From assembly GCA_018823885.1 (NCBI GenBank), contig JAHJHG010000009.1, forward strand, positions 783-64,782: a DNA stretch of 64,000 nucleotides. Direction: 5' to 3'. Shown here one piece after another: positions 1,552 to 24,416 of this stretch. The DNA comes from Patescibacteria group bacterium (GTDB lineage Bacteria > Patescibacteriota > Microgenomatia > UBA8517). How positions within the stretch are numbered: the stretch's first letter is position 1; each line of letters starts with the position of its first letter. The notes beneath the pieces are model-generated. The model saw only the letters and a program-made list of their open reading frames with translations. It had not been told where the DNA came from and searched no databases. The translations under genes and the position numbers were made by a program.

Positions 1552-3498
1552 TTATTCTAACTTGTGGCTGATATTAATTGAGTAGAGTCTTTCTTCTGTA
1601 ACAATTATTATTTTACCAACTTCTTCAGATACAACCATTCCTCTTGCTTCTTTTATTTTATCCGAAAAGTACTGAGCTTGGTAATTACCCTCCTTGTCGA
1701 CGACAACAATTCTTCCTGTTTCTTTCTCCATCAAGTAAACAAACTTAAGTTCCTCGTTTGTATAAATGGCCGTCGGTCGGGATAGTTGGGGTATGATGTC
1801 CGCAAAGCTTAAAGTATCTTGATTTCCCTTGGTAAATTTAAATACTTTTCCTGTTTCTGAAAGAAACCAGATAGAACCATCAATTGTCCAGTCAAAAATA
1901 TTACTCAAGTCCGGCTCTGTTCCAGCCGTTAGCCAGTCTTGTTTTGAGCCAAAACCACCATCTGCACCTGCGTACCGATAAACCTTGGATGTTCCCCGAT
2001 CCAGCACATAGAAATTGCCGGCATAAGCGGAGATAAGAACGTCTCCTTCCCATTCGCCCTCGACTGCTAACTCTCTTTCGTCAGCAACTTCATAGATATT
2101 TCCATCTGATAACACAAATACTCTGTCAGAATAGGCCGCCACCCCTTTTGCCTCTTTTACTTGGTCGGGTCCAGCCACAATCTCGGTCTTTTTTGTTTCG
2201 ATTTCTATCTCGACTACCTTTTTCCCATCTCTGTCTAAAACATATAGCTTTCCGTCTGAAGCAACCACATCGTCCGCCTTAAAACCATCCGTTAAAATTG
2301 ATAAGTCTAAGAAAAGATCTGATTCAATTGTATATTCACCTAAAACTTGTCCTTCCGATTCTTCAAGAAGGGCAATTAAGTTGTCAAGTTCAGAATCTTC
2401 AACCCCTTCATCTTTAATTTGATAAACAAGTCTTTCTGCATTTCTGAAAAGCTCCCTCGCTCTTTCGGGGTCAAGTGTATAAAGGCCTTGCGCCTCTTCA
2501 AATTCATGTTGGGCTTGCTTAAGTCGATCTTCATAGCGGGCGCGTTCATCACGAACCATCTTTTGTCTTACCCCAAAACCGATGCTTACAACAAGTAAGA
2601 CAACAAGAATTGAACCAATTGAAACCGTAACTTTCCTTTTTTGAACATTAAATTCATCTTCTCCTCGCTGTCGAACATATATTTTCTTTTCTCCTGTCCT
2701 TTTACTAAAAATAGAGGTTAATTTATTCGCCTGTTTTTGGAAAAAAGAGGCCGGTCGATCTTTAGTTTCCTTATCAAAAATCTCTTTGCGTTCTAGTGTG
2801 GTTTTTTCTTCTGGTTCAAATTCCTTATCCGGTCGTGCAAAAATTGCCTGCGTCTTTGAAAACTCGACTAAGACAAGTCCAAAATTTCCCGCCTCTTCTC
2901 TTGAATGAACAGCTGGAGCCAAAGACTCAACCGCTTCATTTATTCCCGAACTTTCAAGGGCTGCTTTTATCACACCTTCGCTCAAAGAACTAAAAACCTT
3001 TTTTGTCCCAAGTAAAAATATGTCTCCTTCTTTGGGATGGCCGGAAGCAGATACCGGTCCATTATCTTTGCTTACCAATATTTTAGCCAACATACCATTT
3101 CTAAAAACAGCTGCCTGTCCGCCACCACCGCAAGCAGTGTAGATAACTCCATTAACTATTGAGGCGGCCGCTATCTCAACATCACCCCAGGTTTCCGAAA
3201 ATTCGCTTATTACCCTCTCTACGGAATCATTGAGAGCATTAAAGGCCGTTTTTTCTGTGCTACCGAAGTATTCCTCATGAAATCTTGTTAAAAGTTCTCT
3301 TCCAGCAACAACATTATCGAGACCTTCAGGGTCAGGGGGTGCTTCACTTTTTTGAGAGGTCGTTGCAATAACAGCCACTAATCTTCCACGAAGCTTTAAT
3401 TTTTCTTCATCGTCTGGGGCAAATTCATGAACTTGGGCCCAACTGGCTTTTCCCGGACTCCCGGTTAATTTAGCTAAATTGATATCTAATTCTGCCAC
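1552..3498 (-). CDS. Hypothetical bitopic membrane protein. Cytoplasmic N-domain, one TM, coiled-coil, then extracytoplasmic repeated YVLD(R) beta-propeller-like repeats.
   Basis: 648 aa ORF. Central hydrophobic segment VTVSIGSILVVLLVVSIGFGV. Recurring YVLDRDG/YVLDRGT repeats in the C-terminal half. Confidence 0.45.
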   Translation of the reverse strand: MAELDINLAKLTGSPGKASWAQVHEFAPDDEEKLKLRGRLVAVIATTSQKSEAPPDPEGLDNVVAGRELLTRFHEEYFGSTEKTAFNALNDSVERVISEFSETWGDVEIAAASIVNGVIYTACGGGGQAAVFRNGMLAKILVSKDNGPVSASGHPKEGDIFLLGTKKVFSSLSEGVIKAALESSGINEAVESLAPAVHSREEAGNFGLVLVEFSKTQAIFARPDKEFEPEEKTTLERKEIFDKETKDRPASFFQKQANKLTSIFSKRTGEKKIYVRQRGEDEFNVQKRKVTVSIGSILVVLLVVSIGFGVRQKMVRDERARYEDRLKQAQHEFEEAQGLYTLDPERARELFRNAERLVYQIKDEGVEDSELDNLIALLEESEGQVLGEYTIESDLFLDLSILTDGFKADDVVASDGKLYVLDRDGKKVVEIEIETKKTEIVAGPDQVKEAKGVAAYSDRVFVLSDGNIYEVADERELAVEGEWEGDVLISAYAGNFYVLDRGTSKVYRYAGADGGFGSKQDWLTAGTEPDLSNIFDWTIDGSIWFLSETGKVFKFTKGNQDTLSFADIIPQLSRPTAIYTNEELKFVYLMEKETGRIVVVDKEGNYQAQYFSDKIKEARGMVVSEEVGKIIIVTEERLYSINISHKLE

Positions 3499-3500
3499 TT

Positions 3501-3728
3501 TTATAAAATAATTAGGGCAAGAACGAATATTACCAAAGAAAATACCAAATGAGAAATACCCAGCATTCTAATCGGTCCTTCAAAGCCTACTTCTAGAGTA
3601 TCGGTCATGAGCTGTATTTGCCTTAATACTACAAAAGCGAAAATACCATAAATTACTAGAGCAAAAAGAACCAACACTTTGGCTATTAGCCAAATTGATA
3701 CTCCAATAATCGGTAATACTTGGTTCAT
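3501..3728 (-). CDS. Small two-TM membrane protein (hypothetical)
   Basis: 75 aa, two hydrophobic helices, 4-nt overlap with the upstream gene. Confidence 0.35.
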   Translation of the reverse strand: MNQVLPIIGVSIWLIAKVLVLFALVIYGIFAFVVLRQIQLMTDTLEVGFEGPIRMLGISHLVFSLVIFVLALIIL

Positions 3729-4423
3729 CTAACTCTCCCTTCTAGTTTCTCTATCTCTTCCTCAATCCTCAGATCTTGTAATATCTTGGCTACCTTATCA
3801 GGATTAGGTACGGCCAAAAAATCAAAGTTGGGCACCTCCGCCGCAGTTTGAACAAATACGTCACCATAATTAAATAACGTTCTAGCTACTCCTCCCATTG
3901 TGTAAGTAACATCCTGGATTTTATCAATATTGGTATCTGATACTTGTTTATATATCAGATTGAAAAAATCGATATCAATAATTCTTTCATCCGTAATAAT
4001 GTTTACATTGAAAAACCAAGTAAGGAAATTCTCCATAAAAAAAGCGGTTGTTATAAGATACCAGCCCAGAATGGCAATTAGTTGAAACTCATCGGGTAAA
4101 AAAGAGAGTAAAGGAAAAATACTTAAAACTGCCGGAGCAACAATCATCAACGCCCCAATAACAATCCAGGAAAAATTAGTCACGGGATGCCTGCGCAACA
4201 AAAGGACAACTTTTTCTTCTTTATCTCTTGTTTCAAAATTAACCTTTTTCGGAAGATAACTAAAAGCCGACAATCTACCTTGAGCTTTCTGTTCAAGTTT
4301 ATACTTTGGACGCCTATGTTTTCCCTCTCTTTTTGCTTTCGAGGCAGACTTTTTCTTAATAGGTTCTTTCTTAGAAGTTAGCTTTTCTTTTTTTGTGTCG
4401 TTAGAAATAAAGATATCCGGCAT
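3725..4423 (-). CDS. Membrane protein with lysine-rich N-terminus, possibly a bPH_2 (membrane-flanked PH domain)-like protein
   Basis: K-rich N-terminal 60 aa, then two TM helices (RRHPVTNFSWIVIGALMIVAPAVL...) followed by a soluble domain. Confidence 0.4.
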   Translation of the reverse strand: MPDIFISNDTKKEKLTSKKEPIKKKSASKAKREGKHRRPKYKLEQKAQGRLSAFSYLPKKVNFETRDKEEKVVLLLRRHPVTNFSWIVIGALMIVAPAVLSIFPLLSFLPDEFQLIAILGWYLITTAFFMENFLTWFFNVNIITDERIIDIDFFNLIYKQVSDTNIDKIQDVTYTMGGVARTLFNYGDVFVQTAAEVPNFDFLAVPNPDKVAKILQDLRIEEEIEKLEGRVR

Positions 4424-4467: not shown

Positions 4468-6204
4468 TTATTTCTTCTCTATATTGAAAAGTGGACCAAC
4501 TATTTGGATATTAGCAGGGGCTCTTAAGTTGAAAAAATCTTTGAATTGGTTGGCATCAAAACTGTCACCGCCAGCATCACCGCTGACAGCAATTGTGGTT
4601 GATTTTCCTGTTCCCCAATCAACGCCCGGCATTGAAACACTGGAAATACTGTTGTAAGGGGTAACTCCTCGATTGCTTAGTTCCTGTTTTACTCTTCCCG
4701 AATCCCATGTGTCTGTACCGGCAGGATTCGGCTTATCAGTTTGATATAAGTGTTCACTTACCGAAGGATCCTTTTGGGCCAACATTAAAACATTAACTAT
4801 ATCCGCTACTTCCTCTGATTTGAGCCAAGCGGAATTACCGTATTCACTGCGCCAACCCTGGGCCGCATAGAAACAAGGCGAATCTTTATCATAAGCTTGT
4901 GATTGAAGGTCAGAAAAACTACCAACATCGCCGGTTGTGTCTCTTAATCTTTTTGTCCATGGCGTTCCACTCCAACCAACATCAGATGAAGCGAACGTAT
5001 ACCCTCCAGATGTTGAAGCATACCAGGCCGTAATCACTTGACCACTATTGATGGCAACCTCTCCTTCAGTGGCACGAACGGCCGCTTCCCAATTTCCTCC
5101 TTTGTTTCCTCCCTTATAAACTTGGCAACTTTGGGTTGTGCAAATCTCTTTTGTGCCATTATTCGTATAAGACACCGCATAAGAGCGAGCCGCTACTGCT
5201 TGGGCTTTAAGAGCCTCAATTGGCCAGCTTTCCGGCATTTCATAAATCCCAAGAAGATAGGTTTCGAGCGACATAGAGCCATATCCTTGAACACTAATAT
5301 TAATATCTGGTCTTTTTTCAATGGTAATACCCTGATAGTAAGCATTTAGAATCTGTTGATATGATTGGCCCGCATTGGCCCTGCCATATGCACCGTATTG
5401 ATTTATACCCACCCTGTGAGGAATGCCGTAGGTATAAAAGGCAAAAGCAGGGCTGAAACCTGGATTGAGGTTTCTGTCATCGGTACAAAAAAGCGGTCCA
5501 GCTCCCAAACTAGTTGGTAAATTTAAACTACCTAACTTTTGAGCAATGAAACTCTGTTGTTTAGAACTTAAACTGGCAATATAGCTTTCAACCTTGGCCA
5601 CTTCTCCTGAAAGAAAGGTCGCTCTTTCATCCACTTTCATTTTTATGGCAGCCAGTCTCGTGTTATTTCTTTCTAAACTCTCTTTGTCTTCTTTGAGTTT
5701 CAATAAATCTTCTGCGTAGGCCTCCATTGTTCTTCTATCTTCATCAGCTGCTTTTTGACGAAAACTTATTTCCCTAAAAGCTTCTGAAGCGTCGTTAGAG
5801 GAAAGGAATGGCAAGATGGGATCGTAAAGTCTCAAAAATTTATAATGGCTATTGGCCTTGGCTTCAAAAATTTCCTGAGTAAAGGCGAGGTCTTCTTCTC
5901 TTTGTCCAATATTTTTTTCAACAATATTTAGTTGTGCAGAAATACCATTAATTTGCTTATTTAAACTATTAAGTTCCGTTCTTAAGTTTGCCAATTCTTG
6001 TTTGTTGTACTCATGGGCCGGCTTTAATGCATCAATTTCCCGCTGAATTTTATCAATACAGAAGGTTAGATCCCCTTGCTCAGGATTATCACAATTTGGC
6101 TCAGCAGAAATCAGAGAGGTTTTGTTTATAAATATTGTTGAAATAAATAGCAACACTAAGACCAAAAAAAGAGAAAAGTGTTTTGTTAGCTTGGAGGTTG
6201 TCAT
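4468..6204 (-). CDS. Secreted SpoIID/LytB-domain protein with N-terminal coiled-coil
   Basis: Signal peptide. Long coiled-coil. C-terminal SpoIID-like motif EALKAQAVAARSYAVSY...ICTTQSCQVYKGG. Confidence 0.7.
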   Translation of the reverse strand: MTTSKLTKHFSLFLVLVLLFISTIFINKTSLISAEPNCDNPEQGDLTFCIDKIQREIDALKPAHEYNKQELANLRTELNSLNKQINGISAQLNIVEKNIGQREEDLAFTQEIFEAKANSHYKFLRLYDPILPFLSSNDASEAFREISFRQKAADEDRRTMEAYAEDLLKLKEDKESLERNNTRLAAIKMKVDERATFLSGEVAKVESYIASLSSKQQSFIAQKLGSLNLPTSLGAGPLFCTDDRNLNPGFSPAFAFYTYGIPHRVGINQYGAYGRANAGQSYQQILNAYYQGITIEKRPDINISVQGYGSMSLETYLLGIYEMPESWPIEALKAQAVAARSYAVSYTNNGTKEICTTQSCQVYKGGNKGGNWEAAVRATEGEVAINSGQVITAWYASTSGGYTFASSDVGWSGTPWTKRLRDTTGDVGSFSDLQSQAYDKDSPCFYAAQGWRSEYGNSAWLKSEEVADIVNVLMLAQKDPSVSEHLYQTDKPNPAGTDTWDSGRVKQELSNRGVTPYNSISSVSMPGVDWGTGKSTTIAVSGDAGGDSFDANQFKDFFNLRAPANIQIVGPLFNIEKK

Positions 6205-6277
6205 TGGTAATAATTATAGCAACTTTGTTTCAGTCTTTTACTCTCTCTTTATTTTGCTTTAAAATAATCATACATCT

Positions 6278-6988
6278 ATGAAAAAAATAACCATTACACT
6301 CGCCCTATTTTTGTTGATATTAATCTTTGTTCCAAAAAACATTTTTGCACAAGGAACATTTTCCTGCTACCAGCCAACGGCCAGCGTTCCCTGTGTTCCA
6401 GCAAATGTATATTGTGAAGAAGGGTATATCCCCGACACTAGTTATTGTAGTGCAAGGACAAACTCTAATTGCAACAATGTCCCTGCGACAACATGCATAG
6501 AAATACAGGGGCCAGAAACACAAACTGGCTGCTCTTCTGTCAGCACGGGCAGAACATATTGCACAACACAAGCTGCCCCTGGATATGGAGATATAGAAAT
6601 ATACTGTTCTACCAGTGATGAGTGTGAGAGCTATAAAGCAGAGCATCCATTAGAATCATCGGATAGTGAGTTTCCAACCTGTTTTACCGACGGCAAAAAA
6701 GGAATAAATACAGCTATCGGTTGTATCCCGATAGAAGACTCGAATTTGCTGATTGGTTTTATCTTAAAATGGGCCATTGGTGTTGGTGGAGGTATTGCTT
6801 TCCTATTAATCGTCCTTGCAGGTTTTCAAATAATGACCTCATCCGGCAACCCGGATAGATTAAAAGCAGGCCAAGAATTAATGACCTCGGCTATTGCAGG
6901 ATTAATACTTTTGATATTCTCTGTTTTTATATTAAAAATTATTGGAGTTGATATACTAGAATTACCAGGCTTTGGAGGAACACCATGA
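6278..6988 (+). CDS. T4SS pilin-like protein (VirB2/TrbC-type two-TM core) with about 120 aa Cys-rich N-terminal extracellular extension. First member of the paralog array.
   Basis: Signal peptide. At least 11 Cys in residues 30-130. C-terminal TM-SSGNPDRLKAGQEL-TM core shared with downstream paralogs. Stop overlaps the next start (ATGA). Confidence 0.6.
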   Translation: MKKITITLALFLLILIFVPKNIFAQGTFSCYQPTASVPCVPANVYCEEGYIPDTSYCSARTNSNCNNVPATTCIEIQGPETQTGCSSVSTGRTYCTTQAAPGYGDIEIYCSTSDECESYKAEHPLESSDSEFPTCFTDGKKGINTAIGCIPIEDSNLLIGFILKWAIGVGGGIAFLLIVLAGFQIMTSSGNPDRLKAGQELMTSAIAGLILLIFSVFILKIIGVDILELPGFGGTP

Positions 6989-7311
6989 AACTTGCACAAG
7001 ATTTAGAAGAAATTCAAAGTAAGGCATTACCTCAGTTTGAATTCTCGGGAGAACAAGGAGATATTGGAAATGTTGTCTCCAGTCTTATTAATTATCTTTT
7101 TCCATTGGCTGGAATCTTACTTCTTCTCTATCTTATCTATGGCGGATTTAGTCTAATGACCTCGGGTGGAGATCCAAAAGCGGTTCAAGGCGCAAAAAGT
7201 AAAATTACTAGTGCTCTAATTGGTTTCATAATCATTTTTGCGGCCTATTGGATAGTACAAATAGTTGCGTCAATTTTAGGAATCGAGGCAATAACAAATA
7301 TCTTCGGATAG
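6985..7311 (+). CDS. T4SS pilin-like small two-TM protein (paralog 2)
   Basis: Core LMTSGGDPKAVQGAKSKITSALIGFIIIFAAYWIVQ...GI. Confidence 0.65.
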   Translation: MKLAQDLEEIQSKALPQFEFSGEQGDIGNVVSSLINYLFPLAGILLLLYLIYGGFSLMTSGGDPKAVQGAKSKITSALIGFIIIFAAYWIVQIVASILGIEAITNIFG

Positions 7312-7349
7312 ATTTGCACCCTACCTCTTTTGCCTGCTAAACTTAAACC

Positions 7350-7670
7350 GTGAATAAATTAGCTGTTGAGATAGGAGAAAAGTTTTTTGGGGAAGGTTCC
7401 AATACACCATTAGCCGAAATCAGTGGGATTGGAACTCTTGTCTCCATTATCGTCAACGCCGCATTTGTTTTGGCAGGTATTATTTTGCTCTTCTTCTTTA
7501 TCTTCGGGGGAATTTCTATGATTGCAGGCGCCGGAAAAGATAATCCAGATCAAGCGGCAAAGGGAAAGCAGGCAATAACTTCTGCTCTTCTTGGTTTTAT
7601 TGTTGTTTTTGCCTCCTATTGGATAGTACAATTAATCGAACTTGTCACAGGAATCATTATTTTAGGATGA
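7350..7670 (+). CDS. T4SS pilin-like small two-TM protein (paralog 3, GTG start)
   Basis: Starts GTGAATAAATTAGC (MNKLA). Core AGKDNPDQAAKGKQAITSALLGFIVVFASYWIVQ. Confidence 0.6.
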   Translation: MNKLAVEIGEKFFGEGSNTPLAEISGIGTLVSIIVNAAFVLAGIILLFFFIFGGISMIAGAGKDNPDQAAKGKQAITSALLGFIVVFASYWIVQLIELVTGIIILG

Positions 7671-8023
7671 ATAAATTAGCAGAAAACAGTCCTTTTGGAT
7701 CCATAAATTTACCAGAAACTATAGAGAATAAATATCCCGGTGGAGTAGAAGGTGGGGCAATAGGAATCTTTCTAAACTGGACTATCAAGGCCCTTATTAT
7801 TGGTGCCGGGGTATATGCTCTCTTTAATCTTGTTCTTGCCGGATATGCTTTCATGTCTGCTGGAGATGATCCCAAAAAAATGGCTGGTGCCTGGGCAAAG
7901 ATATGGCAAACTCTTTTGGGGCTTGCTTTTGCCGCTGGCGCCTTCGTCTTAGCCGCTATATTTGGACAACTGATATTTGGAGATCCAACTTTTATACTTA
8001 ACCCAACAATACCGACACCATGA
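7667..8023 (+). CDS. T4SS pilin-like small two-TM protein (paralog 4)
   Basis: Starts ATGAATAAATTAGC (MNKLA), overlapping the previous stop (ATGA). Core SAGDDPKKMAGAWAKIWQTLLGLAF. Confidence 0.6.
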   Translation: MNKLAENSPFGSINLPETIENKYPGGVEGGAIGIFLNWTIKALIIGAGVYALFNLVLAGYAFMSAGDDPKKMAGAWAKIWQTLLGLAFAAGAFVLAAIFGQLIFGDPTFILNPTIPTP

Positions 8024-8385
8024 ATAAATTAGCTGATATAAACCTGGCGCCCGAGGGAGGATTTAAAGGATTTGGTGCCCTGGGGTTAGAAGAAGGACAG
8101 AGCGCTCCAGCAGTATTTACAAAATTCATCTCCAGCGTTATTGGACTAATGACAATTATCGCCATTATCTGGTTTGTTCTTCTGATGATAATGGGGGCCA
8201 TTGGCATTATTAGTTCGGGGGGAGACAAAGCGGCGTTGGAATCTGCTAAAAAACGAATTACAACCGGAATTCTTGGCTTCGTCGTCGTTATTGCCGCTAT
8301 TTTTATTGTCCAATTAATAGGAAAACTGATAGGAATACCGAATATATTAGATCTGCCTGTCTTGTTAGAAGGAATTCAACAATAG
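8020..8385 (+). CDS. T4SS pilin-like small two-TM protein (paralog 5)
   Basis: Starts ATGAATAAATTAGC (MNKLA), ATGA overlap. Core SSGGDKAALESAKKRITTGILGFVVVIAAIFIVQ. Confidence 0.65.
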   Translation: MNKLADINLAPEGGFKGFGALGLEEGQSAPAVFTKFISSVIGLMTIIAIIWFVLLMIMGAIGIISSGGDKAALESAKKRITTGILGFVVVIAAIFIVQLIGKLIGIPNILDLPVLLEGIQQ

Positions 8386-8726
8386 TGAATTATCTTGCTC
8401 AAGATTCAATAGAAAATCCCGTCTTAGGCCCCTCTTTGCAAACAAAAACCGGTGTTGGGTTTTTCCAAGATCTTTTACCCAGAATGGTCGGTCTGGCTTT
8501 CCTTGTAGGTGTGCTTATCTTTTTCTTTGTCATGATAATGGGGGCGATTCAATGGATCACTTCTGGAGGAGATAAAGCAGGGATCGAGTTAGCCAGAGGA
8601 AAAATAACAAATGCTATTGTCGGAGTGGTTATTCTTCTCTCCCTTTTTGCTCTACTTAAAGTCCTTGAGGACTTTTTTGGAATAAACATACTTGCCCTTG
8701 ACATAGGGCCGCTTATGATTCAATAA
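8385..8726 (+). CDS. T4SS pilin-like small two-TM protein (paralog 6, GTG start overlapping previous stop)
   Basis: Core TSGGDKAGIELARGKITNAIVGVVILLSLF...FGI. Confidence 0.6.
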   Translation: MNYLAQDSIENPVLGPSLQTKTGVGFFQDLLPRMVGLAFLVGVLIFFFVMIMGAIQWITSGGDKAGIELARGKITNAIVGVVILLSLFALLKVLEDFFGINILALDIGPLMIQ

Positions 8727-8736
8727 TATACGCAGA

Positions 8737-9087
8737 ATGCTTAACTTTTTGTATTCAACCGCCGTTCTCGCAGCCGACGACATAAATCTTAGCCCCACAG
8801 GGGAATTTTCGGCTCTTGGTGACTTAACAATTGGCGGAATTGTTTCAGCTTTTATCCGATTAATTCTAGTTGTTGCCGCCTTGGTATTTTTCTTCATTCT
8901 TGTTATCGGAGGAATCAGGTGGATTGCCTCAGGTGGAGATAAGGCTCAAACCGAAACAGCCAGAAATCAAATTACGGCCGCACTTGTTGGATTGGTTATC
9001 GTTTTTGCCGCTTGGGCCATTGTTCAACTAATAAATACCTTCTTCGGTATTGACATTTTCAGTCTTACCCTCCCAACGGCACAATAA
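8737..9087 (+). CDS. T4SS pilin-like small two-TM protein (paralog 7)
   Basis: Core ASGGDKAQTETARNQITAALVGLVIVFAAWAIVQ...FGI. Confidence 0.65.
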   Translation: MLNFLYSTAVLAADDINLSPTGEFSALGDLTIGGIVSAFIRLILVVAALVFFFILVIGGIRWIASGGDKAQTETARNQITAALVGLVIVFAAWAIVQLINTFFGIDIFSLTLPTAQ

Positions 9088-9156
9088 AACAGGCTTGCTC
9101 CAATTACTTCATTAAGTTAAACTTTAAGTCGAAAAGTATTGGTATCTTTTTGCATC

Positions 9157-9486
9157 ATGAATAAAATTATTAGTACTGTATTGGCTGCTGAAATTGAAAC
9201 AGTGGATGATGTTGCCACACTTCAAGGCTTTGAAGGAGTTTTTGAAAACATAGTAACCATCGTCCTAGGATTTGGAGGTATTATTCTTTTCATCATGCTT
9301 ATAATGGGAGGGTTTCGATTTATAACCGCTGGTGGAGACCCCAAGGCAATCGAAGGTGCAAAAAAAACCTTAACTTATGCTATCGGAGGCATTGTTCTTG
9401 TTGCTCTTTCATTTCTAATCCTCAGATTTATTTCCACCTTTACCGGAGTCGATGTCACTCAATTTAAAATATTTCAAGGAAATTAA
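9157..9486 (+). CDS. T4SS pilin-like small two-TM protein (paralog 8). Likely start at MNKIIS.
   Basis: Core TAGGDPKAIEGAKKTLTYAIGGIVLVALSFLIL...TGV. Confidence 0.6.
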   Translation: MNKIISTVLAAEIETVDDVATLQGFEGVFENIVTIVLGFGGIILFIMLIMGGFRFITAGGDPKAIEGAKKTLTYAIGGIVLVALSFLILRFISTFTGVDVTQFKIFQGN

Positions 9487-9499
9487 CTTCAAAACAAAA

Positions 9500-11869
9500 A
9501 TGCACAAGCTGCCCAAGAAGCCTGTTAATAAAGAATGTTTTTCCCTGATTCTATTGTTTATATTTTTCTTTCTTGCTCTTGGGTTCTTTGTATCGAAAGC
9601 AAAAGCCCAAATCCCAAATCCTCCGGTTCCCTGCGATGAAACACGAAATGATGAGTTTCATTCTTTGAGGCCCTATCAAGCCAGCCCCTGTGATGACAAA
9701 GCGGACACCGCTCTTTTTTGTGGAAATGATTTAATTGTTGCCGATACGATCACTGTTACTAAAAATCAAGCAACATCATGCGAATCTCTATCTAGTGGAA
9801 AGGAAAAGTGTAGTTTTACAACAAGTAACTCAAAAAATATTAGGATTGATTTATCAAGTGCCGATTTTCCTATTCTAGGTAATACCGAAAGTGTCGTAAA
9901 TATTGACAAAGATGCTGATGATTCTGGATTTGATGATGTAGGAAAAACAAATGAATACGTTAGCTGGTATCTAAACGGCACCATAAATCGCGCCGAGTAT
10001 GAGTTTCTAAACCCAAGCGAAAAACAAGACATCAGCAAGCTTATAGATTTTTCTGGCCCCATCAACAAACTTCTTCCATGGGAACAACAAGTAGCATACA
10101 GAATAAACACAATCAAACAAACTGGCGCAACGCGTCATGATCAAATAATTGCTTGTACTGTTGCGGGTGTTCCCGTTCCTTGCTATCACCAAGGACTACT
10201 CGAAATAATCGATACAAAACACCGACTTTCTGACTGGGAAGGGAAAATCACAAATTTACCAACACTGCCTGGTACTTGGAACGAAAGGGTACCTCCTCAA
10301 AGAAAAGATTTTGAAAATTTTCTAAACTACTGGGAAGCTTACAGGGAGTGGAGGGGCAATAGTTGTGGCCAATTTACAATTCCAATAATAAACAAACGTG
10401 TTCTTCTCTGCTCTCCTATTGACAATCCACTTAGGCCAAATTACTGGGCGGATCTATTTCCCTATGTTCCTTTTTCTTCAACGGAAGACCAGCTTGGGTT
10501 TGTTGAAACACAAACCTTGACCGCTTATTCTCCATCGGAAGATGTTACTTTAAAAGAAGTTTTATTTGATAATCAGGAACCAGCGGAACTCTTCTTTGCT
10601 CACACAGAAGAAGTTGCAGAGTTGGCTAGTATTTTGCAAAAAACGTTCGCTCCACAAGGTGCGGAAAACAATCTGTCATTTTCAGGTGTTTCTCCTACTG
10701 AATACTGTGATCTTGTAAATGTCCGTACAAACGAAGGGGATGATCTTTTTGCCGGAGAAATAGGTGGAGTACTTTCATACACCGCTGAATTTACGTGCGA
10801 ACTTGAACCAGGAGCAAGCAATGCTTGCGAAAGCGCAGGAGGAGAATGCATAAATACTCCCAGTTGTATCCGTGTCGGCAAAGGAACTGTGAATGGAGGC
10901 TCTGGGTGCAATACAGTAAACGAGACCTGCTGTGCACGAGAAGAGCCATTGTCTGGACAGGAGTGCACAAAAGAAATATACGCTAATTTGTCTGTTATAA
11001 CAAAAACCCCTAAGGTGAATGAAATTTGGGCAAGAACCGTAGCTGGACCATCATCAATTTTTAAAAGAATATTTCCCAAGATAGGAGAGGGTGGGGCTAT
11101 CTTGGGATTATTAGATATTCCCGGCGCAACAAACGTTACCTATTCAGGTGATGGCCTTGTCTACGCTGGCAATCCAGGAAACGAACGTTCTGGAGAATCT
11201 GCTGAACTATACTTCCCGCACGTTGGAGGGGTATCTGAATATTTCTTGAAAGGAATTCAAACTATTCTTCGACCAAAAGGCTTTGGGGAACAAATTCTTT
11301 CTGGTCAACCAGGAACAGAGTCGCCCGTACAAGAATGTAATCAAGATATTTCTAATTCGGCAATCCCCTCAAAATATCTGGGAGCATTCAAAGAAAACTT
11401 CATTCGCATGGCGAGAGATTGGAGTGAGAAGACTGAATGCCAGGGGCTTGAAAATACGATGGCGGATGAATGTTATAACGACGTTGTTAAGCGCTCTGTT
11501 GATAAAGGAGTAAATCCTGCCTTCACCTTAACCATCTGGCTTAATGAAACTGGTGCCAGTAATTATTGCGAGAGTGGGTCAACGGCTCAGGACTTTGGTA
11601 TTAGAATTCCATCTATCTTCCAAAACTTTGGAGAACAACTTGATCATTTTTTGGGTTTGCCTTTCAGTGGTACTTATGTCTCTTGCTCCAATGAAGCTGG
11701 TTGGGATAATAGAATACATGCTTTTCTCAGTAGATTTCGATCAGGCGGTTGTGATCCAACGGACAGTGAAGGAAATATCTATTACAACCACATTAAAGAA
11801 ACAACTTGGCCTTGGGTATCAAATTGTTCAAATCTCCCTAGTTGGCCAACAGACACGAGTTGTCCTTAA
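9500..11869 (+). CDS. Large secreted Cys-rich protein of unknown function (about 790 aa). Candidate pilus-associated adhesin or tip protein.
   Basis: Signal peptide MHKLPKKPVNKECFSLILLFIFFFLALGFFVSKAKAQ. More than 30 Cys including a dense cluster CESAGGECINTPSCIRVGKGTVNGGSGCNTVNETCCA. No TM after the signal peptide. Sits between the pilin array and the VirB6-like gene. Confidence 0.55.
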   Translation: MHKLPKKPVNKECFSLILLFIFFFLALGFFVSKAKAQIPNPPVPCDETRNDEFHSLRPYQASPCDDKADTALFCGNDLIVADTITVTKNQATSCESLSSGKEKCSFTTSNSKNIRIDLSSADFPILGNTESVVNIDKDADDSGFDDVGKTNEYVSWYLNGTINRAEYEFLNPSEKQDISKLIDFSGPINKLLPWEQQVAYRINTIKQTGATRHDQIIACTVAGVPVPCYHQGLLEIIDTKHRLSDWEGKITNLPTLPGTWNERVPPQRKDFENFLNYWEAYREWRGNSCGQFTIPIINKRVLLCSPIDNPLRPNYWADLFPYVPFSSTEDQLGFVETQTLTAYSPSEDVTLKEVLFDNQEPAELFFAHTEEVAELASILQKTFAPQGAENNLSFSGVSPTEYCDLVNVRTNEGDDLFAGEIGGVLSYTAEFTCELEPGASNACESAGGECINTPSCIRVGKGTVNGGSGCNTVNETCCAREEPLSGQECTKEIYANLSVITKTPKVNEIWARTVAGPSSIFKRIFPKIGEGGAILGLLDIPGATNVTYSGDGLVYAGNPGNERSGESAELYFPHVGGVSEYFLKGIQTILRPKGFGEQILSGQPGTESPVQECNQDISNSAIPSKYLGAFKENFIRMARDWSEKTECQGLENTMADECYNDVVKRSVDKGVNPAFTLTIWLNETGASNYCESGSTAQDFGIRIPSIFQNFGEQLDHFLGLPFSGTYVSCSNEAGWDNRIHAFLSRFRSGGCDPTDSEGNIYYNHIKETTWPWVSNCSNLPSWPTDTSCP

Positions 11870-11919
11870 ATGGTGTGTTGTTGACCCTACATTCGTATTG
11901 TATGATTAAAATAATAAGT

Positions 11920-13488
11920 ATGTTCAAGAAAGTTATTGTCTCGTTTATATTAGTCTTCTTGCTTTTTGCTGCATTAGTAACTCCCAATGCAAAAGCTCAG
12001 GGAGGAGGAAATTGGTATAATCAATCTTTTGAAGAGTGGTCTGCAAAGGTTTTTGATGACAGTAACCCTCAAGAAATATTTGGGGAAAGATATACCTATG
12101 CGCAGGTAACTTGGATCTTACACTCTCTACAGGCTTTTGCGTATGGAGACGATTTGATTAATTGTGTTAATGTTTCAAACGGAGATTTAAATGAAATTAA
12201 AGATTGTGTGAAAGGACTTCAAGAATCAAGTTCATTTATTAATAGCCCCGTATTGGCGATTGGTGCTTTTGGAGATTCTGTTCTTTCTCTTCATCCGGCG
12301 TCAGGTGTTGAATATGTCGCGGACACTGCTTCCAGGCTAAAAATAATTCCAAGTGCTTATGCGCAAGGAATTGGATTTGAAGGATTACAGCCGGCCCTAA
12401 AAGCGTGGAAGGTAACACGCAATATGACCTATGCTCTTTCTATTCTCGCCGTGATCGTTATGTCTTTTATGATTATGTTTAGGGTAAAAATTTCACCACA
12501 AGTAGTAATCACTGTTCAATCTGCACTCCCTAAAATTATTATTGCTTTAATACTTATCACTTTTTCTTATGCCATTGCTGGCTTTATTATTGATATTTCC
12601 TATCTTCTTCTGGGAATCATTGCTGCATTAGTTACATCCTCCGGGGTGGATATTTCTAGTTTGAACATGATACCGTTTTTCAACACATTCGTAATGGGTT
12701 CCGGCCTTTTTTGGTCTCTCATACTAACGCAGTTGTTATTTTTATTATTGTTCGGGATAACTGGAGCGCTAGTAGGAGCTCTTTTCGCCGTTCCCACTGG
12801 AGGATTGTCAATTGCCATTGGGGGTGGTATTGGAGCTATTCTTTTTCTCCTACTCATTGTTCTGATGATTTTTGCCAGCATAAAAATTCTCTGGCTTTTG
12901 GTAAAAACCACCATCAACATCCTTCTTCTTATTATCGCTGCTCCAATAATGATTTTAGCAGGAACGTTTTCGTCAGGAATAGGGTTTGGACCTTGGTTAA
13001 GACAACTTGTAGCCAATGTTGCCGTATTTCCAATGGTTCGAATCATGTTGTTCTTAGCCCATTATTTCTTTTGGGGAATGCGCATGACACAAGAGGTCGA
13101 TCTTGCCGGGTGGACTGCCGTCAATCCTTTGGGAATTCTTCCTTCTGGAGGAGAAATGGCTGTCCTGCCCGGCTATCTTCCTTTTAGCGTCGGAACCGGA
13201 CTTTTAGGTTGGATTCTCTCTTTCGGCGTGTTTTTCTTAACACCTAAGATCGGTGATATAATCAAGTCCATGATTGAAGGCAAACCATTCGCTTATGGAA
13301 CGGCTATCGGAGAGGCTGTTGGACCAATAGGCGCCGCTTGGGGATCAACCCCTGCACGTCTTGGCAAAGAAGCTGTTATTAGAGGGGGTGGTACAGAAAT
13401 TGCAAGCAGACTGAGAACAAAAGGGAAACTAGCAACTCAAATAGGAGACCAGCTTGACAATATTCTTAATTCAAAAAGGGGTTCTTAG
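11920..13488 (+). CDS. VirB6/TrbL-like polytopic membrane protein (T4SS inner-membrane channel component)
   Basis: Signal peptide, about 160 aa extracytoplasmic domain, then at least 6 TM helices and a Gly-rich C-terminal tail. Position and topology typical of VirB6/TcpH. Confidence 0.55.
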   Translation: MFKKVIVSFILVFLLFAALVTPNAKAQGGGNWYNQSFEEWSAKVFDDSNPQEIFGERYTYAQVTWILHSLQAFAYGDDLINCVNVSNGDLNEIKDCVKGLQESSSFINSPVLAIGAFGDSVLSLHPASGVEYVADTASRLKIIPSAYAQGIGFEGLQPALKAWKVTRNMTYALSILAVIVMSFMIMFRVKISPQVVITVQSALPKIIIALILITFSYAIAGFIIDISYLLLGIIAALVTSSGVDISSLNMIPFFNTFVMGSGLFWSLILTQLLFLLLFGITGALVGALFAVPTGGLSIAIGGGIGAILFLLLIVLMIFASIKILWLLVKTTINILLLIIAAPIMILAGTFSSGIGFGPWLRQLVANVAVFPMVRIMLFLAHYFFWGMRMTQEVDLAGWTAVNPLGILPSGGEMAVLPGYLPFSVGTGLLGWILSFGVFFLTPKIGDIIKSMIEGKPFAYGTAIGEAVGPIGAAWGSTPARLGKEAVIRGGGTEIASRLRTKGKLATQIGDQLDNILNSKRGS

Positions 13489-15809
13489 CGCCTTTCTTCT
13501 TCGTATCTTCGCTTTGGAGGAGGTTTGACAACAGCCGGCCCTATACTGACTCCCATATTTCCAACATCTTTTCTCGTCTCATTGTAACCAAGCTGCAAGT
13601 TACTAACTTCTTCCTTGCCAGCAATTTCTGCTAGTCTGGCAAATATTTTTGTATAAAATCGAAGTAAATGTACCATTCCTTGAGAATATCCTTTTACTCC
13701 CCCATACTCATCTGGCATACTAGAAAGCTTTGTTTTCCACCAAGACATTTCTACCGCCCATTTTTGCTTCTCTCCTTTTTCAAAACCACGGGCGCCGACA
13801 ATGTCATATTTGTCCGCAACTTTTAACGATATCAGCAATGGCACCAAGCCCATTGTCAACACTGCTTTAGATTGTTTCTCGTCCCTGGTTCCCAAGTCTG
13901 CCCTTTTTAAAAGCTCTCTTATATTATCTACGTCTCCAAAGAAATCCTTAAATTGCCCTTCGTTCGCTGCAGACTCTGGATCCACCATTACTGTCACATA
14001 CCTTACTATTTGGCCTATTGTTATCATCCAACGGTATAGCGCTTGGTCTCCCATTTTGACCCACTTAAACTCAGACTTCGCCTTACCTGCGCACAATTCA
14101 TCCCAAGCACTTGGATCTCCCTCTTCAATGTCGCGCTTTCCTGAAAAGGAAATTGTATTCAGAAAGTTCAGAGAAGCTATTTCAGGAGGGAAAAAAATAG
14201 GTATAACTATCGGATTGCCAGTTTCGTCTTTGTAGGATGTTTCCCAATACCAAAGTAGCTCCCTTAAACCCTCTTTTGCCTCTTGATCCCAACCACTCTC
14301 TTCCCACAACTCTTTAAAGGCGCGTTGAAGCTTTTGGTCCTTTTCAGCAACTGCCTCTAAATATTCCGGTATCCAATCAGGGCGTTCACTAAGCAGTTTC
14401 TTTCTAAATTCGTCGCTCATTGGAAGAAACATTCCTATTGTTCGCGGTTTTCCTTCATTGTCAGCAATAAAATCTCTCCAATAAGCCACACTAATGGCGT
14501 CTGTCGCTACTGTTGTTGCTCCACCAACCCGCCTCCTAGCTACCTTAAGACTTTTCTTTCCATTTTCTTCTACTTCCCTTAGTGCGTACTTCCATCCCCA
14601 TCCTAAGCGAGTACTTACAAAGTGTCCCCAATCCTCTACTATTTCAGCTCTAACAACCTCCCTCGCAAGTGCCTGATTCAAGTTTGCGTTCATACTACGC
14701 CACATTTTTACTCCTTGCTCCGCCCAACCCCTTACTCCTTCCGCTAGTGCTTTTGCTTTGGCCACGTCGCCAGTGGCAATATAGTCCTGCAGTGCTTCTT
14801 TTACGGTTCGTTTTTTGTGTCGATCAGTAGGCATCACTAATAAAGTCTCCATTGCAGCGATGTATAAACGTTTCTTTTCTTCTATGCTGCCCATTGCGTA
14901 CCAGTTTAGAAGAGCTCTGGGCACTACCCCATCCTGCTCGTGAATTAACCAACCATCTTCATTTCTGAGTTTTTTATTTTCATTTGGATATTTTTTCTCT
15001 AATTCTCTTTCTTTTTCCTCAACAAACTCACGTTGCTCTTTGTCTTCAAATACCGTACGTATAAATTGAATTTCTATATCGCTGAGCGTCCTTTGCCCTT
15101 CGGCATCCTTCATAAATGAAGATTCTTTCTTGCTCATTTGGCTTACTTCTGCTACTGCCATTATCCAGAAAGTGCACTCGTCTTGATATTTGACAGCCTT
15201 TTCTCTTGTTTCTTCTCTCCCTTCTTCTAACAACGATGTTTCTTCTTGCTTAGCAACACTCATCCCTGGGAGCTCTTTCTGAAAAGACCCTTCATAAAAG
15301 GAAGCAGTCGGGTCACTGCGCATTCTCTCCCTAACCCAATAAAGCATATTGTGCCAATCATAAAACTTATCTAGAACTCCGCCCATCCCCTCTAATACTT
15401 TTTGGGTGTTCTCTCCCCACGTCAAATCAACCGCCAATCTATCTAGCCACCGCTTAGCCTCGCCTTCTGCCCAATCCTCATCCCGTGCTGTTCTTACTGC
15501 ATTGATAGCCGTGCTGAACCACATTTCTTGAGTCCTAGAATCATAAGGGTAAGGATTCTTGAACCTCATCTCAAGGTCAAGTGTTTTTTCCAGTTCCCTC
15601 ACCTGAGCCTTCATTAGTCTTTCGTGCGTGGAATACAGTTTTTCTTGTGTTTTCTCCTTGTCTATAAACCCAATTTCTTTCCACTTTTTGAGTTCATCTA
15701 TCATATCCAAAAGGTTTGAGTTAGCAAAACCATACCGCTCGCGAGTTTCTCCTCGCCTCAACGACTCACTTCTTGGATCTAACATCAGGTCTTGATTTTT
15801 CTCTGTCAT
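13485..15809 (-). CDS. Large soluble Trp/Glu-rich hypothetical protein (774 aa), encoded on the opposite strand inside the T4SS locus
   Basis: Long uninterrupted ORF. No TM or signal peptide. No recognisable catalytic motif. Confidence 0.45.
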   Translation of the reverse strand: MTEKNQDLMLDPRSESLRRGETRERYGFANSNLLDMIDELKKWKEIGFIDKEKTQEKLYSTHERLMKAQVRELEKTLDLEMRFKNPYPYDSRTQEMWFSTAINAVRTARDEDWAEGEAKRWLDRLAVDLTWGENTQKVLEGMGGVLDKFYDWHNMLYWVRERMRSDPTASFYEGSFQKELPGMSVAKQEETSLLEEGREETREKAVKYQDECTFWIMAVAEVSQMSKKESSFMKDAEGQRTLSDIEIQFIRTVFEDKEQREFVEEKERELEKKYPNENKKLRNEDGWLIHEQDGVVPRALLNWYAMGSIEEKKRLYIAAMETLLVMPTDRHKKRTVKEALQDYIATGDVAKAKALAEGVRGWAEQGVKMWRSMNANLNQALAREVVRAEIVEDWGHFVSTRLGWGWKYALREVEENGKKSLKVARRRVGGATTVATDAISVAYWRDFIADNEGKPRTIGMFLPMSDEFRKKLLSERPDWIPEYLEAVAEKDQKLQRAFKELWEESGWDQEAKEGLRELLWYWETSYKDETGNPIVIPIFFPPEIASLNFLNTISFSGKRDIEEGDPSAWDELCAGKAKSEFKWVKMGDQALYRWMITIGQIVRYVTVMVDPESAANEGQFKDFFGDVDNIRELLKRADLGTRDEKQSKAVLTMGLVPLLISLKVADKYDIVGARGFEKGEKQKWAVEMSWWKTKLSSMPDEYGGVKGYSQGMVHLLRFYTKIFARLAEIAGKEEVSNLQLGYNETRKDVGNMGVSIGPAVVKPPPKRRYEEERR

Positions 15810-16742: not shown

Positions 16743-17786
16743 ATGGATCAACAACACCCTATACCGCAACAAATATCTTCCTACCAGTTTAAGTTGGTAG
16801 GAAATATGACTTTAAAGCAATTTTTCCAAATAGCGGGAGGAGCTCTGTTTTCTCTTCTTTTCTATGCATCAAATCTTCACCCCGTTATCAAATGGCCTCT
16901 TGTAATATTTTTTGCTCTTTTTGGAGCCGCTCTTGCTTTTCTTCCCTTTGAAGAAAGACCTCTTGAGCAATGGGTTATTTCATTTTTCAAAGCAGTCTAT
17001 ACTCCTACTACCTATTTTTGGGGGAAAACGACCAAGCCTCCTGTGTTTTTTAAAGAAGAAGCGTCTGTGCCCCAAGAGCATGTTGTTGCCCCACATGGAG
17101 AGAAAGAATTGGAAAAATACTTGCAGAGTCTTCCAGGGCGAGGCACTTCCGTATTTTCCAAACTCGAAGAGGCTGAAAATACTTTCCTTTCAAAACTTAC
17201 TAGGCTTTTCGGAAGTGGCGGAACAAGAGCGATTGAAACCCCCTCTTCAGCCGCTATGGCTCAACATACCCCGCAAGAGAAACAGCAAGAAATGACTGTG
17301 CCGCAAAACATACCAACTGTTATTCCGCAAGGATATAAGCCCAGGGTTGTGGTTGAAGAAAAAAAACCACTACTTCAAAATCAACAGCCAGCAGAAGCAA
17401 AAACTTCCACCGTTGCCAAGACGTTCACTGCTCAAGAAGTGATATCGGGACAAGCCGCCCAGTTCTCCGTCAATGCAGCTCCTCCACTTCCCCCTGAGAA
17501 GCCTAATACACTAACTGGTCAGGTTGTCGATGCTGGTGGCAAAATCATTGAAAGTGCAATACTCGAAATCAGAGATGTTGCCGGCCGACCTGTTAGAGCC
17601 GTCAAAACAAACAAAGTGGGGCACTTCATAATTGTTACCCCATTACAAGATGGGCGATACGAAATTATAAGCGAGAAGGAAGGGCTTAATTTTGAGCCAT
17701 TAACCTTTGAAGCAACCGGGAGCATTATTCCACCAATTGCGATAAGGTCTAAAAATAAAATTCCCACACCAATAATAATTAATTAA
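16743..17786 (+). CDS. Membrane protein with VirB3/PrgI-like N-terminal two-TM hairpin, Pro/Gln-rich linker and C-terminal carboxypeptidase-regulatory-like (Ig-like) domain
   Basis: N-terminus MTLKQFFQIAGGALFSLLFY...VIFFALFGAALAFLPFEERPLEQW. C-terminus GQVVDAGGKIIESAILEIRDVAGRPVRAVKTNKVGHFIIVTPLQDGRYEI. Directly upstream of the VirB4 ORFs. Confidence 0.45.
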   Translation: MDQQHPIPQQISSYQFKLVGNMTLKQFFQIAGGALFSLLFYASNLHPVIKWPLVIFFALFGAALAFLPFEERPLEQWVISFFKAVYTPTTYFWGKTTKPPVFFKEEASVPQEHVVAPHGEKELEKYLQSLPGRGTSVFSKLEEAENTFLSKLTRLFGSGGTRAIETPSSAAMAQHTPQEKQQEMTVPQNIPTVIPQGYKPRVVVEEKKPLLQNQQPAEAKTSTVAKTFTAQEVISGQAAQFSVNAAPPLPPEKPNTLTGQVVDAGGKIIESAILEIRDVAGRPVRAVKTNKVGHFIIVTPLQDGRYEIISEKEGLNFEPLTFEATGSIIPPIAIRSKNKIPTPIIIN

Positions 17787-17787
17787 T

Positions 17788-18447
17788 ATGAAAATTCCTT
17801 TTATTAGCATACCAGATAAGCCAATATCAGCAATTTCTCAAAAACATTTGCCGATTGCCGATATTGTTGATGACCTGGTTTTGTACAAAGATGGAGGTGC
17901 GGCAATTATCTTGGAAACTACCTCCCTTAACTTTGGTCTTTTGTCCGAAAAGGAGCAACAAGCTGTTATTGCCGCCTATGCTGCTCTTCTCAACTCTCTT
18001 TCTTTTGCTATCCAAATAGTTATTCGCTCTCAAAGAAAAGATATCTCGAGCTATATGAAATATCTTGATGAGGCTTCAAACAAAATTCAAAACCCAAAGC
18101 TTATTGAAATCATGACGGGTTACAAAAACTTTGTTTCTGAAACGATAAAGAAAAAAAATGTTCTGGGAAAAAGATTTTTTATTGTCATTCCGTTTAGCGC
18201 TTTAGAGCTTGGTGTAACGAAATCTGTTCTTTCGATTGCAAAAAAAGGCCCACTTCCATACCCCAAAACCTACGCAATTAAAAAAGCCAAAGTTTCTCTC
18301 TATCCAAAAAGAGACCATCTTATCAGACAAGCCGGGAGATTAAGTATAAAACTAAAACAACTCTCCACTGCGGAATTAATAGAGCTTTTCTATGACATTT
18401 ATAACCCAGAAATGCCAGCAGTTAAAAGCAAGGAGGACACCGTATAG
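17788..18447 (+). CDS. VirB4/TrbE N-terminal-domain-like protein (219 aa). Either a separately encoded N-domain or the 5' part of a split virB4.
   Basis: LPIADIVDDLVLYKDGGAAIILE..NFGLLSEKEQQAVIAAYAALLNSL..IQIVIRSQRKD aligns with the VirB4 N-terminal block (LPY.GHLSDHIVLLEDGS...FELEE.E.RN....NTLLRN...VSIYAHLVRH). Stop lies 1 nt before the ATG of the ATPase ORF. Confidence 0.45.
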   Translation: MKIPFISIPDKPISAISQKHLPIADIVDDLVLYKDGGAAIILETTSLNFGLLSEKEQQAVIAAYAALLNSLSFAIQIVIRSQRKDISSYMKYLDEASNKIQNPKLIEIMTGYKNFVSETIKKKNVLGKRFFIVIPFSALELGVTKSVLSIAKKGPLPYPKTYAIKKAKVSLYPKRDHLIRQAGRLSIKLKQLSTAELIELFYDIYNPEMPAVKSKEDTV

Positions 18448-18448
18448 T

Positions 18449-24151: not shown

Positions 24152-24416
24152 TTTGTTTATCTTTCTTTCGCATTATATGAACAATAAATAATAAAGGCAA
24201 GATGTTTCCAAAATGTATTTTATTAGTTTTTATTATATGCTGTTCTTTCTTTATATAAATTAGTAGTAATAGTAGTAGGGTTTGTTGATAAGTGGAAAAG
24301 TACGCCTACGTAGGCTGGTGATTGATTGTTTATATTAAACATAGTTAATTGTGGATATAAATGTGGATAAAATTACGATTATTGTTGATAAGTGGAGAAA
24401 CTTGATGGGTTTATCC
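24152..24416. promoter_or_regulatory. Candidate oriC: DnaA-box cluster plus AT-rich unwinding element in the dnaA-dnaN spacer
   Basis: Consensus DnaA box TGTGGATAA at 24362-24370. One-mismatch boxes TGTGGATAT (24350-24358) and TTATCCTCA (about 24408). Exact 15-mer TTGTTGATAAGTGGA duplicated at 24282-24296 and 24383-24397. AT-rich stretch with (TAG)n-like repeats at 24217-24278. Confidence 0.55.

Follow-up and report, generated by a model that had tools for sequence, protein, structure and literature searches.

What does a large, cysteine-rich, secreted protein do in the middle of a type IV secretion system (T4SS) locus, and, if it cuts peptidoglycan, whose cell wall does it cut? The question is raised by a gene at positions 9500-11869 (+) of a 64,000-nucleotide (nt) stretch of a Patescibacteria group bacterium genome (assembly GCA_018823885.1, contig JAHJHG010000009.1), the whole of which is called the window here. 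The product of this gene, the target, appears to consist of two modules: a large conserved N-terminal module (N-module) and a C-terminal lysozyme-like domain, which relatives replace with other wall hydrolases. We consider it quite probable that the target is a T4SS muralytic enzyme, whether host- or self-directed. The narrower proposal, that it is a host-directed, T4SS/pilus-associated muralytic enzyme of Woesebacteria made of a docking scaffold and a swappable warhead, is one that we favor tentatively, with a confidence that stops just short of even.

The target coding sequence is complete and encodes 789 amino acids (aa) plus a stop codon, in agreement with the roughly 790 aa given in an earlier note on this DNA made from the sequence alone. 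An alternative upstream ATG at 9452, in an uninterrupted frame, would yield 805 aa and the same mature protein; both forms have been deposited, the 789-aa form being identical to NCBI MBU0572654.1 (“hypothetical protein KKE18_03115”, Patescibacteria group bacterium). A single hydrophobic stretch was found by hydropathy, at residues 8-38, with no other transmembrane (TM) segment. Residues 1-36 (9500-9607, +) fit a cleavable signal peptide, as that note had also proposed. They follow the signal-peptidase-I pattern: the n-region is basic, the hydrophobic core spans about residues 13-33, and the cleavage site lies after A-K-A and before Q. The -1 position is A, S, or G in 168 of 174 aligned relatives (97%), and the -3 position is V, A, I, T, L, or S in 158 of them (91%). 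On this heuristic evidence the protein is predicted to be exported to the cell-wall compartment. It contains 27 cysteines, 26 of them retained after cleavage, rather than the more than 30 first counted; at 3.4% Cys, where the 40 long open reading frames (ORFs) of the window have a median of 0.2%, the description of the protein as Cys-rich nonetheless stands. Among 120 relatives, variable cysteines are gained and lost pairwise (45-64, phi 0.91; 289-304, phi 1.0; 450-456, phi 0.98; 443-470, phi 0.76), which is the pattern predicted for disulfide partners. No DsbB homologue was found in the window. In the closed genome CP129472 the target orthologue has a gene of the DsbB family (L003:898-1407) some 9 kb upstream, which fits extracytoplasmic disulfide formation in these bacteria.

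The C-terminal 178 residues, 612-789 (11333-11866, +), are predicted to form a divergent lysozyme-like (GH23-type) domain on evidence that is convergent, although each line of it is borderline. An AlphaFold2 (AF2) model of the whole protein, made from an alignment of relatives, has a mean predicted local distance difference test score (pLDDT) of 88.5; residues 612-789 are all-helical in it, after a linker of low confidence (606-611). Searched against the PDB with Foldseek, this model has one notable match, to a C. difficile endolysin's glucosaminidase domain (8yxk_A; probability 0.98, E 0.02, TM-score 0.46 on the target), with lytic transglycosylases further down the list. A profile built from 43 tails of the target's own type (type 1, see below) has as its best PDB match goose-type lysozyme 3gxk_A, at E 0.066 and over 126 of 178 positions. 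In this alignment “iWlnESgASNy” of the tail profile falls on “IISRESRAGNV”, which holds the catalytic Glu, “DFGi” on “GFGLMQ”, and “vYrtG” on “AYNTG”, so that the three GH23 signature motifs appear in GH23 order, two of the three in degenerate form. The target's own motifs (E683-T, DFGI, F-R-S-G) follow the same order. The putative catalytic acid Glu683, in the motif “IWLNETGASNY” (codon 11546-11548, +, checked), is invariant in 43 of 43 type-1 tails and is kept in at least 90% of 101 full-length relatives. In lysozyme-like folds the catalytic Glu sits at the C-terminal end of a helix, and in the AF2 model Glu683 ends helix 673-684. Fifteen residues further on lies Asp698, in the “DFG” motif (codon 11591-11593, +, checked), a second, likewise invariant carboxylate of putative role; W680, S687, and Q713 are likewise invariant in the type-1 alignment, and C729 and C751 are near-invariant. 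The earlier note had seen no recognizable catalytic motif, which these results contradict, and its many conserved Trp and Cys residues at the C-terminus come down to W680, C729, and C751 within type-1 tails. The target and its tail fall below the Pfam thresholds for SLT (PF01464) and SLT_3 (PF18896), with no match even at E<=1-10, and scanning the 43 type-1 tails singly against Pfam at E<=10 gave scattered noise and no family of the lysozyme clan.

The relatives of the target give this assignment its context. A word-indexed protein search with the target returned 544 relatives, and an exhaustive search of 50%-identity representatives returned 779 at E<=1e-3, 405 of them at E<1e-30. All of the named relatives are “hypothetical proteins” of Woesebacteria, Microgenomates, or Patescibacteria. 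A full-text literature search found no paper describing the family, and the target accessions do not occur in the searched part of the supplementary text of PMC12102498. After a conserved “LRPKGFGEQ” motif the relatives split into at least seven unrelated tail types. The target's type, t1, has 135 members. Type t3 (22 members) matches Pfam SLT at 5e-5, above threshold, and t4 (22 members) meets the threshold for SLT_3 at 2e-9. Type t2 (26 members) is linked by hhalign to t3 with 92% probability, and t2, t3, and t5 link to one another by the same method, t5 (six members) having no Pfam family found for it. The three t6 tails are long and show weak BNR matches, and the single t7 tail has an HxH motif characteristic of M23 peptidases. 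In synteny, relatives with the SLT or SLT_3 tail sit precisely where the target does, and the replacement tails retain catalytic Glu or HxH motifs of their own. That these positional orthologues carry a Pfam SLT, SLT_3, or M23-like domain in this place is a further line of evidence for a lysozyme-like, wall-cutting type-1 tail.

Tails of different types are borne by N-modules that are approximately 80-90% identical. The closest such pair, P0012 (t1) and P0026 (t3), shares 90.3% identity over 607 aa of N-module; P0026 and P0028 (t2) share 88%, P0050 (t1) and P0064 (t4) 86%, P0069 (t1) and P0105 (t5) also 86%, and P0066 (t1) and P0143 (M23-like) 79%. Some long relatives are extended further, by a NAGPA phosphodiester glycosidase domain at the N-terminus (1e-26) or by weakly matched GDSL or BNR domains.

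The N-module, residues 37-606 (9608-11317, +), makes up about 570 aa or approximately 70% of the target. An alignment of 101 relatives shows core residues 45-600 to be strongly conserved, with 38 invariant columns, and the C-terminus less so. Modelled alone, the N-module reaches a pLDDT of 91.5 and a predicted TM-score (pTM) of 0.88, and it is predicted as a mixed, beta-rich structure with three long beta-hairpins (strands of 13-18 residues) and helices. It holds about eight conserved disulfide-type Cys pairs, and its invariant polar residues include R57, Q215, D330, H368, R409, D414, D539, H574, and Q587. An HxxE motif (368-371) and H574 both lie at strand-to-helix junctions, and H368-x-x-E371 together with H574 may bind a metal or belong to a conserved interface. 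No solved structure in the PDB resembles the N-module model by Foldseek (best E 0.78, TM-score <0.15), the N-module has no Pfam, NCBIfam, or PHROG match, and the whole target model found no match in BFVD. Maturation proteins of single-stranded RNA phages, which bind pili, recur in these searches at E 0.2-3 but with TM-scores <0.1 and root-mean-square deviations >25 A, and were set aside as noise. At the tip of the third long hairpin, flanked by invariant C433 and C489, is a hypervariable Cys-rich insertion (residues 434-488; 10799-10963, +). Across 235 aligned relatives it ranges from 7 to 163 aa and from 0 to 20 Cys, while the adjoining segments are constant in length; in the target, residues 433-489 contain eight Cys. 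The knot-like cluster that had been placed at about residues 450-500 turns out to be this insertion and is not conserved, and a conserved knot at the Cys cluster 443-478 was rejected as a candidate, as the cluster falls within it.

The size, predicted secretion, and Cys content of the target, together with its exposed hypervariable loop, invite another explanation, in which it is a non-catalytic adhesin or a structural pilus or wall component whose lysozyme-like domain only binds glycan while the N-module and loop attach. The N-module does lack a recognizable enzyme fold, and a place beside the pilins recalls minor or tip pilins such as VirB5, by analogy only. The invariance of the catalytic-type Glu683 and of the neighboring motif residues is difficult to reconcile with such a role, as is the exchange among orthologues of other catalytic wall hydrolase domains with their own catalytic residues, and no structural match in the PDB to VirB5/TraC or to PrgB-type adhesins was obtained. 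We regard this explanation as unlikely. The earlier note had offered adhesin, wall-spanning component, and effector as equal options; given a wall-cutting domain, a pure adhesin falls back and a muralytic accessory enzyme or effector is favored.

The target is encoded within a T4SS cluster. Upstream on the same strand are eight VirB2-like T4SS pilin genes (6278-9486, +), two matched by Pfam T4SS_pilin and the others of the same architecture, the last of which ends 13 nt before the target ATG. Downstream, after about 30 nt, lies a gene for a polytopic membrane protein (11902-13488, +) with a signal peptide, six to seven TM-like segments, and no Pfam match, a VirB6/PrgH-like candidate. Further on are PrgI (VirB3-like), a TraC-like protein, and the VirB4 ATPase (16743-20410, +; Pfam PrgI, P-loop_TraG, CagE_TrbE_VirB), with VirB4 itself at 18392-20410. 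The conservation of this order was scored by tblastn with window proteins in 79 GTDB loci from a scan of one genome per GTDB species, each denominator being the loci with enough flank for the feature in question. Pilin matches occur within 4.5 kb upstream of the target orthologue in 61 of 63 loci, a VirB6-like homologue lies directly downstream in 59 of 69, and PrgI/TraC-like/VirB4 follow within 10 kb in 48 of 56. SpoIID, from a divergent gene block described below, is found upstream in 51 of 54. Five loci looked up by protein, including that of the closed 842-kb genome CP129472, have the gene order of the window. Patescibacteria T4SSs have been described as MPF-FATA-like (MPF, mating-pair formation) with VirB2 arrays, often near dnaA, which matches the locus in the window (PMC12102498).

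Such an arrangement bears on whether the target might be a generic candidate phyla radiation (CPR) surface or wall-remodeling protein whose T4SS neighborhood is coincidental. Housekeeping genes (smpB, dnaN, dnaA) do lie nearby, and there are many reasons why small CPR genomes conserve their gene order. This reading has to contend, however, with 59-61 of 63-69 genomes in which the target sits with the pilin array on one side and the VirB6-like gene on the other; in the window it shares their strand, with intergenic gaps of only 13 and about 30 nt. We consider coincidence very improbable. The earlier note, which placed the protein between the pilin array and VirB6, outside the cytoplasm and tied to the T4SS, had asked whether it would prove to be a generic CPR surface protein unlinked to T4SS loci. 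The position was borne out, the export signal, disulfide-type cysteines, and conserved synteny agree with the rest, and synteny holds in approximately 85-97% of informative genomes, which answers that question clearly in the negative. The family was not found outside T4SS loci except at L082 and L083, themselves beside VirB4 or dnaN. These two carry divergent family copies (L082:10001-11557 and L083:854-2359; E 1e-40) beside dnaN/dnaA and without an upstream pilin array; VirB4 lies upstream of the copy in L082, and that in L083 has an SLT_3 tail and the small ORF described next.

Loci with the SLT_3 tail contain an extra ORF of 142-173 aa directly 3' of the target orthologue in 16 of 16 cases, compared to 0 of 60 with other tails (76 loci with a classified tail; Fisher p 9e-17, a value that does not account for kinship). 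Examples directly following the orthologue are L004:12091-12573, L011:12336-12803, L018:12338-12859, and L028:5477-5968. The product has an N-terminal membrane anchor and a conserved C-terminal motif, “ACKL.V.ITTP..NP..AG..Y.LSFCE”, with two Cys, and the family has no Pfam match. Together with the SLT_3 tail it looks like an enzyme-immunity cassette, the small ORF being a candidate immunity or inhibitor protein.

Whose wall would be cut is the more difficult part of the question. A self-directed, VirB1-like enzyme would open the producer's peptidoglycan for assembly of the VirB2-like pilus and channel while being held in place by the N-module. VirB1 is required for pilus biogenesis in classical systems, the target lies in a T4SS operon beside the pilins, and its tail type has no immunity-like partner. 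Classical VirB1 profiles rarely match near virB4 in Patescibacteria (PMC12102498), which leaves the VirB1 role open. A better positional analogue of PrgK/TraG is nonetheless present directly after VirB4, in the form of a membrane-anchored M23/CHAP protein. In the window this is a membrane protein (20331-22391, +) with three TM-like segments and a C-terminal CHAP match that, at E 0.0057, is weak and falls short of the cut-off; in L001, L004, and L005 the C-terminus of the counterpart is Peptidase_M23, and exchange of the C-terminal wall-hydrolase domain seems to occur in this protein as well. Its position after VirB4 and its architecture are those of PrgK/TraG in Gram-positive T4SSs (PMC12857230), making it a candidate positional PrgK/TraG-like wall hydrolase. 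The locus conserves a SpoIID gene as well, and rapid tail swapping, an SLT_3-specific ORF, and added NAGPA, GDSL, or BNR domains are unexpected of a housekeeping enzyme acting on its own wall. We therefore rate a self-directed role as possible but rather unlikely.

The host-directed reading is preferred because a PrgK-like hydrolase after VirB4 is already available for the VirB1 role, and because nearly identical N-modules carry different warheads, in one case accompanied by an immunity-like gene. The hypervariable loop, the tail swapping, and the SLT_3-linked ORF fit an outward-facing enzyme better than a housekeeping role. Several points weigh against it. In the window the VirB6-like gene follows the target after some 30 nt with no ORF in between, and nothing homologous to the small ORF occurs anywhere in the stretch, so that the effector-immunity argument covers the SLT_3 subtype only. 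Gram-positive T4SS hydrolases also vary in their domains, and swapping is therefore no proof of a foreign substrate. The lysozyme assignment is itself borderline, both in structure (Foldseek E 0.02, TM-score 0.46 on the target) and by hidden Markov model (E 0.066); hhalign gave no significant link from the type-1 tail to the SLT or SLT_3 tail type, and the target protein has no Pfam, NCBIfam, or PHROG match and gave empty results in sequence and profile searches of the PDB. Finally, the role assigned to the N-module is purely inferential.

With these points in mind, a host-directed enzyme could work as follows. The protein would be exported by Sec as a disulfide-stabilized two-module protein, with the signal peptide cut between A36 and Q37. 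The N-module would serve as a scaffold that docks the enzyme to the pilus or channel and exposes the hypervariable Cys-rich loop. The GH23-like domain would then cleave the glycan strands of peptidoglycan with Glu683 as the putative acid catalyst, mainly in the partner (host) cell's wall, where the two cells are in contact, rather than in that of the producer. We infer the enzymatic activity, the docking by the N-module, and the identity of the wall that is cut from genes and models. A more ambitious version, which we find doubtful, holds that the N-module is a new fold mounting interchangeable envelope-degrading warheads on the CPR T4SS pilus for breach of the host wall, the producer being guarded by a cognate immunity protein at least in the SLT_3 subtype. 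The warheads in question are those found in the family, namely lysozyme-like, SLT, SLT_3, M23, NAGPA, SGNH, and BNR domains.

A comparison with described systems shows which parts of this picture are familiar. Like the T4SS hydrolases VirB1, PrgK, TraG (pIP501), and TcpG, the target is encoded in a T4SS cluster and predicted to be exported, and has a lysozyme-like domain with a catalytic-type Glu; those proteins are also modular, with hydrolase domains that vary between systems. Unlike them, the target has no detectable sequence match to SLT, VirB1, TrsG, or CD419-type profiles, and it possesses a conserved Cys-rich module of 570 aa that is absent from all described T4SS hydrolases. It has a predicted cleavable signal peptide where PrgK and TraG have an N-terminal membrane anchor, lacks any CHAP, LytM, or NlpC domain, and follows the pilin array in gene order, the place after VirB4 being taken by the separate PrgK-like protein (20331-22391). 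With GH23 lysozymes and lytic transglycosylases the domain appears to share an all-helical structure in the model, a Glu at a helix end in an E-S/T motif, and FG followed by Y-x-x-G. It departs from them in having DFGI in place of GLMQ and (F/Y)RxG in place of AYNxG, as well as the extra invariant Asp698 and several domain-internal Cys.

The family also recalls polymorphic toxins (CdiA-CT/CdiI, Rhs, LXG) in its conserved scaffold with interchangeable C-terminal enzymatic domains and in the strict linkage of one tail type, SLT_3, to a small downstream ORF. In contrast to those toxins, its tails are wall hydrolases only and not nucleases or pore-formers, and most tail types, including that of the target, have no adjacent immunity-like gene. 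Phage tail lysins such as T4 gp5 similarly place a wall-degrading domain on a structural module of an envelope-crossing machine. The target resembles neither these toxins nor the phage lysins in sequence or fold. VirB5/TraC minor pilins are secreted, encoded between pilin and VirB6-type genes, and possibly pilus-associated, as the target may be, but VirB5 is a three-helix bundle of about 220 aa, whereas the target is 789 aa long with a beta-rich N-module, a predicted enzyme domain, and no PDB structural match to it. What is known, then, is the enzyme class and its association with T4SSs; what is new is the large N-module and the secreted two-module design beside the pilin array, along with warhead swapping with a linked small ORF.

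These features are relevant to the means by which ultrasmall episymbionts breach or remodel cell walls. The only CPR bacterium amenable to genetics requires its T4SS with a pilin array for epibiotic growth (PMC10633639). A survey of Patescibacteria reported few VirB1-type hydrolases near virB4 and concluded that pilus biogenesis may not need one; it also suggested that other glycosidases may substitute for VirB1 (PMC12102498). The target family supplies a predicted muralytic enzyme at the pilin array of essentially all sampled Woesebacteria loci, while the target's tail type is invisible to current profiles and all of the named database records that were encountered call the family member a “hypothetical protein”. 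If the more ambitious version is true, swappable warheads and the SLT_3-linked ORF would amount to a polymorphic, T4SS-linked, host-wall-breaching effector system in episymbiotic bacteria. As its model is confident and matches no solved structure, the N-module is a good target for structure determination.

Several other features of the locus were recorded. The first gene of the pilin array (6278-6988, +) is atypical, encoding 236 aa with a signal peptide, a 150-aa N-terminal extension, and a C-terminal T4SS_pilin domain. Its product has 12 Cys in the extension and, at 5.1%, the highest Cys content in the window, and it may be a specialized or tip pilin. Upstream of the array is a divergent block of four genes, namely a SpoIID-domain protein (4468-6204, -), a 232-aa protein (3725-4423, -), DUF5657 (3501-3728, -), and a 648-aa protein (1552-3498, -). 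The block is kept in the same order upstream of the pilin array in 51 of 54 genomes and probably belongs to the same system. A scan of 6100-13600 for promoters and terminators did not rise above shuffled expectation and showed no terminator-like site at the ends of the target. In eight of 56 loci (L035, L042, L043, L045, L047, L058, L063, L071) a multi-ORF insertion of 3-7 kb separates the target orthologue from the VirB6-like gene. On the opposite strand within the T4SS cluster, 13485-15809 (-) encodes a cytoplasmic protein of 774 aa that lacks TM segments and matches no Pfam family; a gene for 600-820 aa occupies the same place and strand in the loci that were looked up, with weak tblastn similarity in some genomes only. 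The PrgK-like gene is followed by one for a Big_5 protein and then by dnaN and dnaA (23036-25853, -), which, directly after the T4SS cluster, place the locus at the replication origin, a location already described for T4SS loci of Patescibacteria (PMC12102498). Among the GTDB loci, L006, L010-L012, L014, and others come from metagenome-assembled genome records titled “uncultured Gammaproteobacteria bacterium”, and L081 is a 2.8-kb contig from an “Ignavibacteria” bin; these names look like placeholders or mis-binning rather than true taxonomy.

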